Virus record (IMG/VR): IMGVR_UViG_3300010367_000056
Coordinates: 1-64,000 of that record
Source of the DNA: a virus
Lineage: Duplodnaviria; Heunggongvirae; Uroviricota; Caudoviricetes
Reading direction: 5' to 3' (one strand)
DNA: 64,000 nt
In this document: positions 29,626 through 29,758 of the stretch, piece after piece
Layout of the letters: each line of letters begins with the position of its first letter
How positions within the stretch are numbered: position 1 is the stretch's first letter
Position numbers and translations under genes: made by a program
The notes under the pieces: generated by a model
The model's input: only the letters and a program-made list of their open reading frames with translations
Database searches by the model: none
Told to the model about the DNA's origin: nothing

Positions 29626-29758
29626 TTTACGTTGCTAACTTATTGCTCACCCTCCAGGAGTCGAACCTAGAATAGCATTTCTTAGCATTACAATAATGTG
29701 TGTCGGCAGCTAACCAATGCCACTACTAAAGTTGGAACCTTAATAGTAGGTTAGGGTG
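29626..29758 (-). tRNA. aberrant tRNA-like gene with an insertion or intron of about 45 nt (or a tRNA-derived structured RNA)
   Basis: Perfect 8-bp acceptor closure CTCACCCT / AGGGTGAG. D-arm ACCT-ACTATTA-AGGT. Canonical T-arm CTAGG-TTCGACT-CCTGG. About 67 nt lie between D- and T-arms where about 22 are expected. A GGGAGA...TCTCCC hairpin lies downstream at 29601-29627. Confidence 0.35.

Follow-up and report, generated by a model that had tools for sequence, protein, structure and literature searches.

A conserved tRNA-like RNA gene family, linked to tRNA-Ile(GAU), in a clade of tmRNA-carrying, crAss-like phages

Results

The window analysed here is a stretch of 64,000 nt (positions 1 to 64,000 of IMG/VR record IMGVR_UViG_3300010367_000056), AT-rich at ~31% GC, in which genes are read from the minus strand until ~43 kb. 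Its terminase, portal and major head proteins match PHROG families, the best terminase relative being Leptolyngbya phage Lbo-JY46 at just 34% identity, with Crassvirales next; judged by sequence, the source is a distant crAss-like phage. On the minus strand there are a tmRNA (25630-26056) and, among small ORFs, seven tRNA genes; two further tRNAs lie on the plus strand, and ARAGORN calls no tRNA-Ile anywhere in the 64 kb. The element described here occupies a 175-nt gap between an ORF of 79 aa (30004-29765) and one of 88 aa (29589-29323); it is preceded by the former and not by a tRNA, and still lies within the tRNA region.

Several features of this setting deserve mention in their own right. 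Just downstream of the element lie a small WGR-domain protein (29019-29339, minus strand) and an AAA ATPase (27347-28471, minus strand), a block that is syntenic in most related loci (loci are cited below by L number). The window tmRNA scores 74.6 bits with Rfam and has the tag EDVDATLAQLFETELALA; most related loci (L001, L005, L006, L011, L018, L115 and L118) have an ARAGORN tmRNA call at the syntenic position, usually with a class II (Leu-like) tRNA ~0.1-1 kb further downstream. Two window tRNAs, at 33263-33335 and 25110-25193 (both minus strand; Rfam 46.7 and 31.5 bits), are drawn by ARAGORN with an anticodon loop of 6 nt and with no amino acid assigned, and odd calls with 6-nt or 8-nt anticodon loops recur in relatives (e.g., 'tttt' at L001 5967-6039). 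Suppressor-type tRNAs (UUA, CUA, UCA) are found in relatives at L006 5695-5765, L011 4255-4328, L018 559-632 and L014 6659-6733, which suggests stop-codon reassignment in parts of the clade; ARAGORN assigns no suppressor anticodon in the window, where two tRNA calls lack an assignment. An Rnl1-type RNA ligase (phrog_968; 492-1838, minus strand), ~28 kb from the element, could hint at tRNA repair.

The element itself is a tRNA-like RNA gene at 29645-29760 on the minus strand, comprising 115 nt plus a discriminator C at 29645, and a model search with filters off finds it once in the window. The first-pass annotation had drawn attention to a tRNA-like gene at 29626-29758; there is indeed an element there, and since its acceptor and T-arm span 29760 to 29646 with the discriminator at 29645, those bounds were slightly off. 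As read from the sequence, the acceptor has the 5' strand CUCACCCU (29753-29760) and the 3' strand AGGGUGAG (29646-29653), and CCA is not encoded. The perfect 8-bp helix reported earlier is borne out, minus-strand CTCACCCT (29760-29753) being fully complementary to AGGGTGAG (29653-29646); relatives have 7 bp. The canonical T-arm, CTAGG-TTCGACT-CCTGG in DNA letters, likewise stands at 29670-29654 (CUAGG-UUCGACU-CCUGG), with GGUUCGA.UCC invariant among homologues and the three outer stem pairs covarying.

Between these two conventional parts the element departs from a tRNA. At the D-arm position sits a hairpin, H1 (29720-29749), of 13 bp with the loop UCCA. The D-arm previously proposed, ACCT-ACTATTA-AGGT, is not supported: it is a local alternative within the 5' strand of this hairpin, and its 4-bp stem is not kept in L027. 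A third arm (29676-29719) takes the anticodon-arm position, its basal stem CAUU/AAUG (29719-29716 paired with 29679-29676) enclosing a large conserved loop; this is the GCATT...AATGC helix of the first reading, which holds up as a probable 4-5 bp base of the arm, present in most homologues but not in all. The loop contains an invariant UGG (29714-29716) resembling G18-G19 of the D-loop, and by analogy with tRNA architecture it may contact the T-loop. It also holds the block CCGACACA (29699-29706), of the form (Y)UGAYACACA, in which a heptamer like the anticodon loop of tRNA-Ile(GAU) or tRNA-Val(GAC) lies without an anticodon stem and, in the window, has C at the would-be U33; a mini-hairpin, H3 (CAUUA-UUG-UAAUG, 29686-29698; found by RNAalifold, 100% paired); and an invariant UGCUAA (29682-29687).

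Beyond the discriminator lies a trailer motif, AAGUUAGCA (29633-29641), also found 3' of the element in L027 and L118, with the variant AAGUUAGCU in L115, and 3' of a tRNA-Ile in the syntenic slot of L001. A terminator-like hairpin of 11 pairs with a T-rich tail follows at 29592-29627, just ahead of the ATG of the 88-aa ORF at 29589; the downstream hairpin noted at the outset is thus real, its paired part running from 29627 to 29602, and L001 has a homologous hairpin 3' of its tRNA-Ile. The surrounding 1 kb contains five terminator-like sites against 0.5 +/- 0.7 in shuffles. We also observed that UUAGCA in the trailer (29633-29641) is complementary to the invariant internal UGCUAA (29687-29682), and an alternative pairing or switch is conceivable from the sequence; UUAGCA is present in the window, L027 and L118 (UUAGCU in L115), and not in L006 or L011. 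Taken as a genome-wide motif, the trailer AAGTTAGCA shows no enrichment, and neither does the internal TGCTAAAG / UGCUAA word show over-representation elsewhere in the window.

Homologues were sought by way of the AAA ATPase, the loci of ten of whose homologues (35-78% identity, in long phage contigs) were fetched, and by scanning public collections with conserved-block patterns, so that the search covered exact patterns and 1.9 Mb of fetched loci. The resulting family has six members: the window copy, L027 (1258-1373, minus strand), L006 (8646-8759), L011 (5584-5697; the same phage as L024, L033 and L034), L115 (8031-8127; the same as L116) and L118 (1238-1334). All six share a 7-8 bp acceptor, a 5-13 bp hairpin at the D position, a canonical T-arm and a third arm with UGG, GAYACACA and UGCUAA around a covarying 4-5 bp mini-hairpin. 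With a covariance model built from four members, those four score 93-109 bits (the window copy 109 bits over its full length), the two later members 55 and 38 bits, and ordinary tRNAs 12-30 bits, which marks the architecture as tRNA-like but distinct. As far as sequence comparison goes, the family is found in a clade of tmRNA-carrying, crAss-like phages. It is absent from the relatives L001, L005, L008, L013 and L014.

Wider searches added little. An nhmmer profile of four members yielded no extra member in the 1.9 Mb of loci; IMG/VR returned nothing for the ATPase as a single protein or for an exact 25-mer spanning T-arm and acceptor; the matches that megablast and blastn produced in phage records were either due to chance or generic to tRNA T-arms; and an exact look-up of the downstream 88-aa protein found no record. 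Degenerate-pattern scans of viral, metagenome and genome collections returned mostly chance matches in higher-GC coding DNA (rejected: L007, L019-L023, L025, L026 and L028-L032), the true ones being only L024 and L033, from the L011 phage, and L027. The family is not in Rfam, and the literature searched describes no equivalent in crAss-like phages.

The predicted fold is well beyond chance. The region has a minimum free energy (MFE) of -41.2 kcal/mol (z = -4.4), a stability reached by 0/200 shuffles, and H1 alone reaches -12.4 kcal/mol against -2.4 +/- 1.8 for shuffles. A simple custom scan for a T-arm joined to a 7-bp acceptor, controlled with dinucleotide-shuffled windows, is expected to give 0.74 sites per shuffled window; the sites in the real window are the known tRNAs, the tmRNA and this locus only.

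Covariation was judged on six sequences in total. RNAalifold, run on a plain MAFFT alignment of all six, predicts the 7-bp acceptor, a 4-bp H3 and the 5-bp T-stem, and 11/16 of these consensus pairs are kept through changes on both sides, including five of the seven in the acceptor; the inner two predicted pairs of H3 change on both sides as well (UA/GC/UG/AU and UA/CG/AU). A hand alignment of four members has 97.6% of cells paired, compared with 39-51% when partners are slid by 1-3 columns, and an alignment of six made by a model has 85.4%, compared with 43-50%. Both of these lean towards structure, so we take the RNAalifold/MAFFT result as the main independent support. H1 and the basal stem were placed in the alignments by eye or by the model: in the hand alignment of four members 11 of the 13 H1 pairs have changed on both sides, and the basal stem is 93.8% paired there as opposed to 61.9% in the model-made alignment, its register being variable. 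This stem is probably real. A hairpin stands directly after the acceptor in every member (5-13 bp); those of the window and L027 are co-linear and covary, and the loops differ in length and sequence (UCCA, UUCCAC, UAAAC, UAAU). Taken at the level of sequence, the compensatory changes support four helices, namely the acceptor, the mini-hairpin, the T-stem and the long hairpin.

Four blocks (UGG, GA.ACACA, UGCUAA and GGUUCGA.UCC) do not vary among the six members, and the intergenic sequence around the element is not similarly conserved. The discriminator is not conserved among the six (C, G, A, G, G, A), nor is the distance from the acceptor end to the heptamer or to the H1 loop constant, and acceptor and T-stem stack as 8+5 pairs in the window and 7+5 in the five relatives. 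Other candidate structures were set aside. The 'upper stem' UUAGC/GCUAA of the MFE fold occurs in the window and L006 only and falls outside the consensus; a D-arm-like hairpin, GGCA-UUGGUUAGC-UGCC, is possible in three members (the window, L011 and L027), but its alignment columns differ between them and in all but L011 it competes with H1, so it was rejected as a conserved helix; a K-turn in the GG/GA internal loop lacks the required GA on the bulged strand; and H1 as an anticodon arm fits just L006 and L011, the covarying register in the window and L027 being 12-13 bp long with loops of 4-6 nt.

The company that the element keeps is informative. A tRNA-Ile(GAU) lies 1-5 nt upstream in L027, L115 and L118, and the element is directly 3' of a tRNA-Arg(UCU) in L006 and of a tRNA-Met(CAU) in L011. 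The relative closest to the window is L001, whose ATPase is 78% identical; in the syntenic slot it carries a canonical tRNA-Ile(GAU) instead of the element, with the same ORF family upstream, the same AAGTTAGCA trailer and terminator hairpin, and the same downstream ORF of 88/89 aa. The (Y)UGAYAC heptamer, moreover, equals the CUGAUAC anticodon loop of the adjoining tRNA-Ile(GAU) in L027 and L118; GAC would be Val. We additionally note that the element in L027, L115 and L118 is followed by a common small hairpin, UUAGC-NNNN-GCUAA (within L027 ~1150-1255, minus strand; L115 8128-8215; L118 1335-1425), and then by a strongly conserved structured stretch of ~60 nt, GGACAUCGG.GAAAUUCCGAUCAYCAGGUUCGUAUARGCGAAGACCC in a GC-rich stem, which is absent from the window and has no Rfam match. 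Another curiosity is seen at L013 ~7990-8040, directly 3' of a tRNA-Arg(UCU), where a tRNA minihelix with encoded CCA consists of a 5-bp acceptor-like stem and the T-arm ACAGG-TTCGACT-CCTGT.

Conventional detection does not recognise the element. ARAGORN makes no call at the locus at default stringency, with the intron search or without it, and with relaxed thresholds returns a low-grade 'Tyr' that makes no use of the 8-bp acceptor. Rfam 15 at E<=10 finds no tRNA, tmRNA, group I or other intron family in 29300-30100, where its matches are two chance CRISPR-repeat hits and nothing else; the other window tRNAs score 31-71 bits with the Rfam tRNA model. Set against the tRNA plan, the element agrees in its acceptor, which stacks on a T-stem of 5 bp, and in its UUCRANY loop. 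In place of a D-arm of 3-4 bp with G18-G19 after nucleotides 8-9 there is a 5-13 bp hairpin without GG there, and in place of an anticodon arm with a 5-bp stem and 7-nt loop there is no stem round the GAY heptamer (0/6 members). The locus has no tmRNA match, the window tmRNA sitting elsewhere, and a tRNA-Sec or allo-tRNA is not indicated either, the 13-bp stack being found in the window copy only and without a variable arm or regular anticodon arm.

A single insertion of ~45 nt, as first suggested, does not describe the element, whose extra sequence lies in at least two separate places (H1, a 5' loop segment and H3), in segments of 13-30 nt each. Such segments are too short for group I introns. 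When each contiguous segment of 15-69 nt was removed in turn and ARAGORN rerun, no consistent canonical tRNA emerged across members: L027 and L006 gave no calls, the window two spurious Tyr calls using another acceptor, and L011, with H1 removed, a marginal tRNA-Ile(GAU) with two anticodon-stem mismatches. In a further scan the first hairpin was removed together with a second segment of 3-44 nt. Over the two scans L027 yielded no call at all, and the window, L006, L115 and L118 showed no anticodon that was consistent. The scan recovered both positive controls, an uncalled jumbo-phage tRNA-Ile with a 47-nt insertion as tRNA-Ile(GAU) and an uncalled tRNA(CAU) with a D-loop insertion as tRNA-Met(CAU). 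Because the deletions restored no consistent tRNA while the controls were recovered, the picture of one insertion or one intron fails.

The controls come from tRNA genes that are of interest in themselves. Jumbo-phage contigs of IMG/VR contain tRNA genes of ~123-144 nt that ARAGORN does not call, with normal acceptor, D-, anticodon and T-arms (L105 17250-17373; L101 15018-15140 and 15147-15290; L088 17833-17955; L094 19803-19925; L089 17069-17192). A conserved insertion of ~47 nt lies between D-arm and anticodon stem (...UUGUCYG..GAAUGC..AAGRUUUACA); its removal from L105 restores a tRNA-Ile(GAU), and these insertions look like an undescribed family of small insertions or introns. At L011 6068-6185, just 3' of a tRNA-Ile(GAU), an uncalled tRNA(CAU) carries a hairpin insertion of ~38-46 nt in its D-loop and is called tRNA-Met(CAU) by ARAGORN once this is deleted.

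Discussion

Comparison of the six copies establishes, at the level of sequence and predicted fold, a conserved, structured, tRNA-shaped RNA gene with a terminator-like hairpin after it. The adjacency to tRNA-Ile(GAU) in three relatives, together with the L001 slot, makes it most likely that the element is a remodelled copy of a tRNA-Ile/Val that would be excised as a tRNA and act as a tRNA mimic. The simplest history would be a remodelled duplicate of tRNA-Ile(GAU), usually found beside its parent, which in the window phage has come to hold the slot that tRNA-Ile(GAU) holds in L001. The first-pass annotation had offered a tRNA-like regulatory RNA as one option, and the tRNA-like part of it is carried by the homologues and their compensatory changes; it survives to that extent alone.

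The acceptor/T-arm stack with its T-loop is the target of RNase P, of the 3' processing enzymes and of the CCA-adding enzyme. The element keeps what RNase P and the 3' processing enzymes recognise, and for that reason they would be expected to cut it out of a polycistronic transcript, with UGG possibly in the role of D-loop G18-G19; the same cuts would also leave the tRNA or mRNA that lies upstream with a mature 3' end. The excised RNA could then accumulate as a stable tRNA mimic, its invariant loop module binding a partner that recognises tRNA, as decoy or regulator. The loop module and H3 lie outside the minimal processing substrate, which argues that the RNA has a role of its own. We thus consider it slightly better than an even bet that the locus is a conserved gene for a ~115-nt tRNA-derived, tRNA-like RNA, neither a decoding tRNA nor an intron-bearing one, that mimics the ligand of a tRNA-recognising factor.

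Alternatively, the element might be a processing module only, a 't-element' whose acceptor and T-arm just punctuate the polycistronic transcript for RNase P and RNase Z, giving the upstream tRNA-Ile or mRNA its mature 3' end and the downstream message its 5' end. We judge this unlikely, though by no means negligible. It would suit the position of the element 1-5 nt 3' of a tRNA in 5/6 members, the retention of the acceptor/T-arm and elbow that RNase P is established to need, the freedom of H1 to vary from 5 to 13 bp, and the similar placement of T4 RNA D and RNA C after a tRNA-Arg. By analogy, plant mitochondrial t-elements are the closest match for such a role: they are reported to be tRNA-like structures within longer transcripts, cleaved by tRNA-processing enzymes that thereby set the ends of neighbouring RNAs (PMC1920247). 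Like the element, t-elements and mascRNA place an acceptor/T-arm within a longer transcript (cleavage being a proposal in our case), but they are eukaryotic or organellar and lack its conserved loop module. What tells against a processing module is that GA.ACACA, UGCUAA and the covarying H3 lie beyond an acceptor/T-arm minihelix and have nevertheless been maintained, the blocks across phages whose neighbouring ATPases are ~50% identical. Processing by itself would leave the loop blocks unexplained.

A bolder form of the mimic proposal can be entertained, in which the family would be a new class of phage tRNA mimic, not itself a tRNA, whose tRNA-shaped scaffold presents the anticodon-loop sequence of Ile/Val together with a UGG like that of the D-loop. 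It would capture or divert a host factor that recognises tRNA-Ile or tRNA-Val, such as a modification enzyme or a defence nuclease that cleaves tRNA, and such a decoy would, in certain phages, have replaced the phage's own tRNA-Ile gene. We regard this as doubtful in so specific a form. The heptamer lies outside any stem-loop and would for that reason make a poor mimic of an anticodon arm; this weighs on the mimic reading as a whole, as do the C at the U33 position and the ORF, in place of a tRNA, ahead of the element in the window.

It is quite improbable that the locus is a decaying tRNA pseudogene or, as had also been suggested, a recombination scar, in either case without function. The absence of the element from L001, L005, L008, L013 and L014 and the irregular third arm would fit decay; the compensatory changes in four helices, the four blocks invariant across six divergent phages, a stability far above that of shuffles and the lesser conservation of flanking intergenic DNA all speak against it.

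More improbable still is a decoding tRNA with a radically non-canonical cloverleaf, which would read Ile/Val codons through the GAY heptamer or other codons through the H1 loop. The window has no called tRNA-Ile and the element sits in a tRNA-Ile slot, H1 loops of the form YU-NNN-AA occur in L006 (CUGAAAA) and L011 (CUAAUAA), and naturally non-canonical tRNAs whose arms depart from the cloverleaf, including tRNA-Sec (8/5), allo-tRNAs and armless mitochondrial tRNAs, can be active (PMC7609411). Against this stand the stemless heptamer, with C instead of U33 in the window, the H1 loop of variable length and sequence, and the inconstant distance from the acceptor end to either loop. The discriminator varies too; in E. 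coli, A73 is an identity base of both tRNA-Ile and tRNA-Val. The resemblance to bacterial tRNA-Sec is confined to the 13 stacked acceptor and T-stem pairs of the window copy (12 in the other five members), for the element has no long variable arm, UCA anticodon or regular anticodon arm.

An insertion- or intron-bearing tRNA, spliced or trimmed to ~75 nt as initially envisaged, is the explanation to which we give least credence: the acceptor and T-arm are canonical, an Ile/Val-type heptamer is present, single insertions of ~40-50 nt exist in other phage tRNA genes of the fetched loci and L011 without H1 gives its marginal tRNA-Ile(GAU), but ARAGORN -i at default stringency and the Rfam intron families are negative, both deletion scans are inconsistent where the controls were recovered, no member has an anticodon stem and the extra sequence is split over H1, the 5' loop segment and H3.

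The proposed tRNA-derived mimic can be set beside several known RNAs. Canonical tRNA-Ile(GAU) and tRNA-Val(GAC) share with the element the acceptor and T-arm, a UGG resembling the D-loop, the anticodon-loop heptamer and, through L001, the slot; it differs from them in having no D-arm, no anticodon stem and a varying discriminator, and in being invisible to ARAGORN and Rfam. Bacterial YrlA (Y RNA-like) is a non-coding RNA with a tRNA-like T-arm/acceptor module, but its RNA ends form a Ro-binding stem and not an acceptor; Rfam gives no YrlA match at the locus.

The nearest analogues are RNA C (species 1, rnaC) and RNA D (species 2, rnaD) of phage T4, stable RNAs of 139 and 119 nt encoded head-to-tail in the order tRNA-Arg, rnaD, rnaC. 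As here, they are phage-encoded, ~120-140 nt long, and located in a tRNA cluster immediately after a tRNA (in five of our six members), and RNA C folds into a canonical T-arm (CCGGG-UUCGAAU-CCCGG) and a closing helix, with long hairpins where the D and anticodon arms would be. The T4 RNAs nevertheless lack the UGG, GAYACACA and UGCUAA blocks, and RNA C is closed by a weaker helix than the element, which has its acceptor of 7-8 bp. Searched with the family model, the T4 locus (L114) gives matches to tRNAs only, not to rnaC or rnaD, so that there is no sequence homology. We observed in passing that, in the T4 genome (NC_000866, 70908-71171, 3' of tRNA-Arg), rnaC folds with z = -4.6 and rnaD with z = -0.8 (no significant fold). 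The function of T4 RNA C is still unknown (PMC3014915).

The tRNA clusters of phages are usually annotated by tRNA finders alone, with the consequence that tRNA-derived RNAs without a cloverleaf are overlooked. The family described here stands outside Rfam, is linked to tRNA-Ile(GAU) and has a defined invariant loop module suited to partner tests. It represents a second, independent case of the long-unexplained situation of T4 RNA C and RNA D, stable tRNA-like RNAs that close a phage tRNA operon, and this old problem may now be open to a comparative approach. Were the family to act as mimic or decoy, these RNAs would be a new phage counter-measure against host systems that target tRNA.
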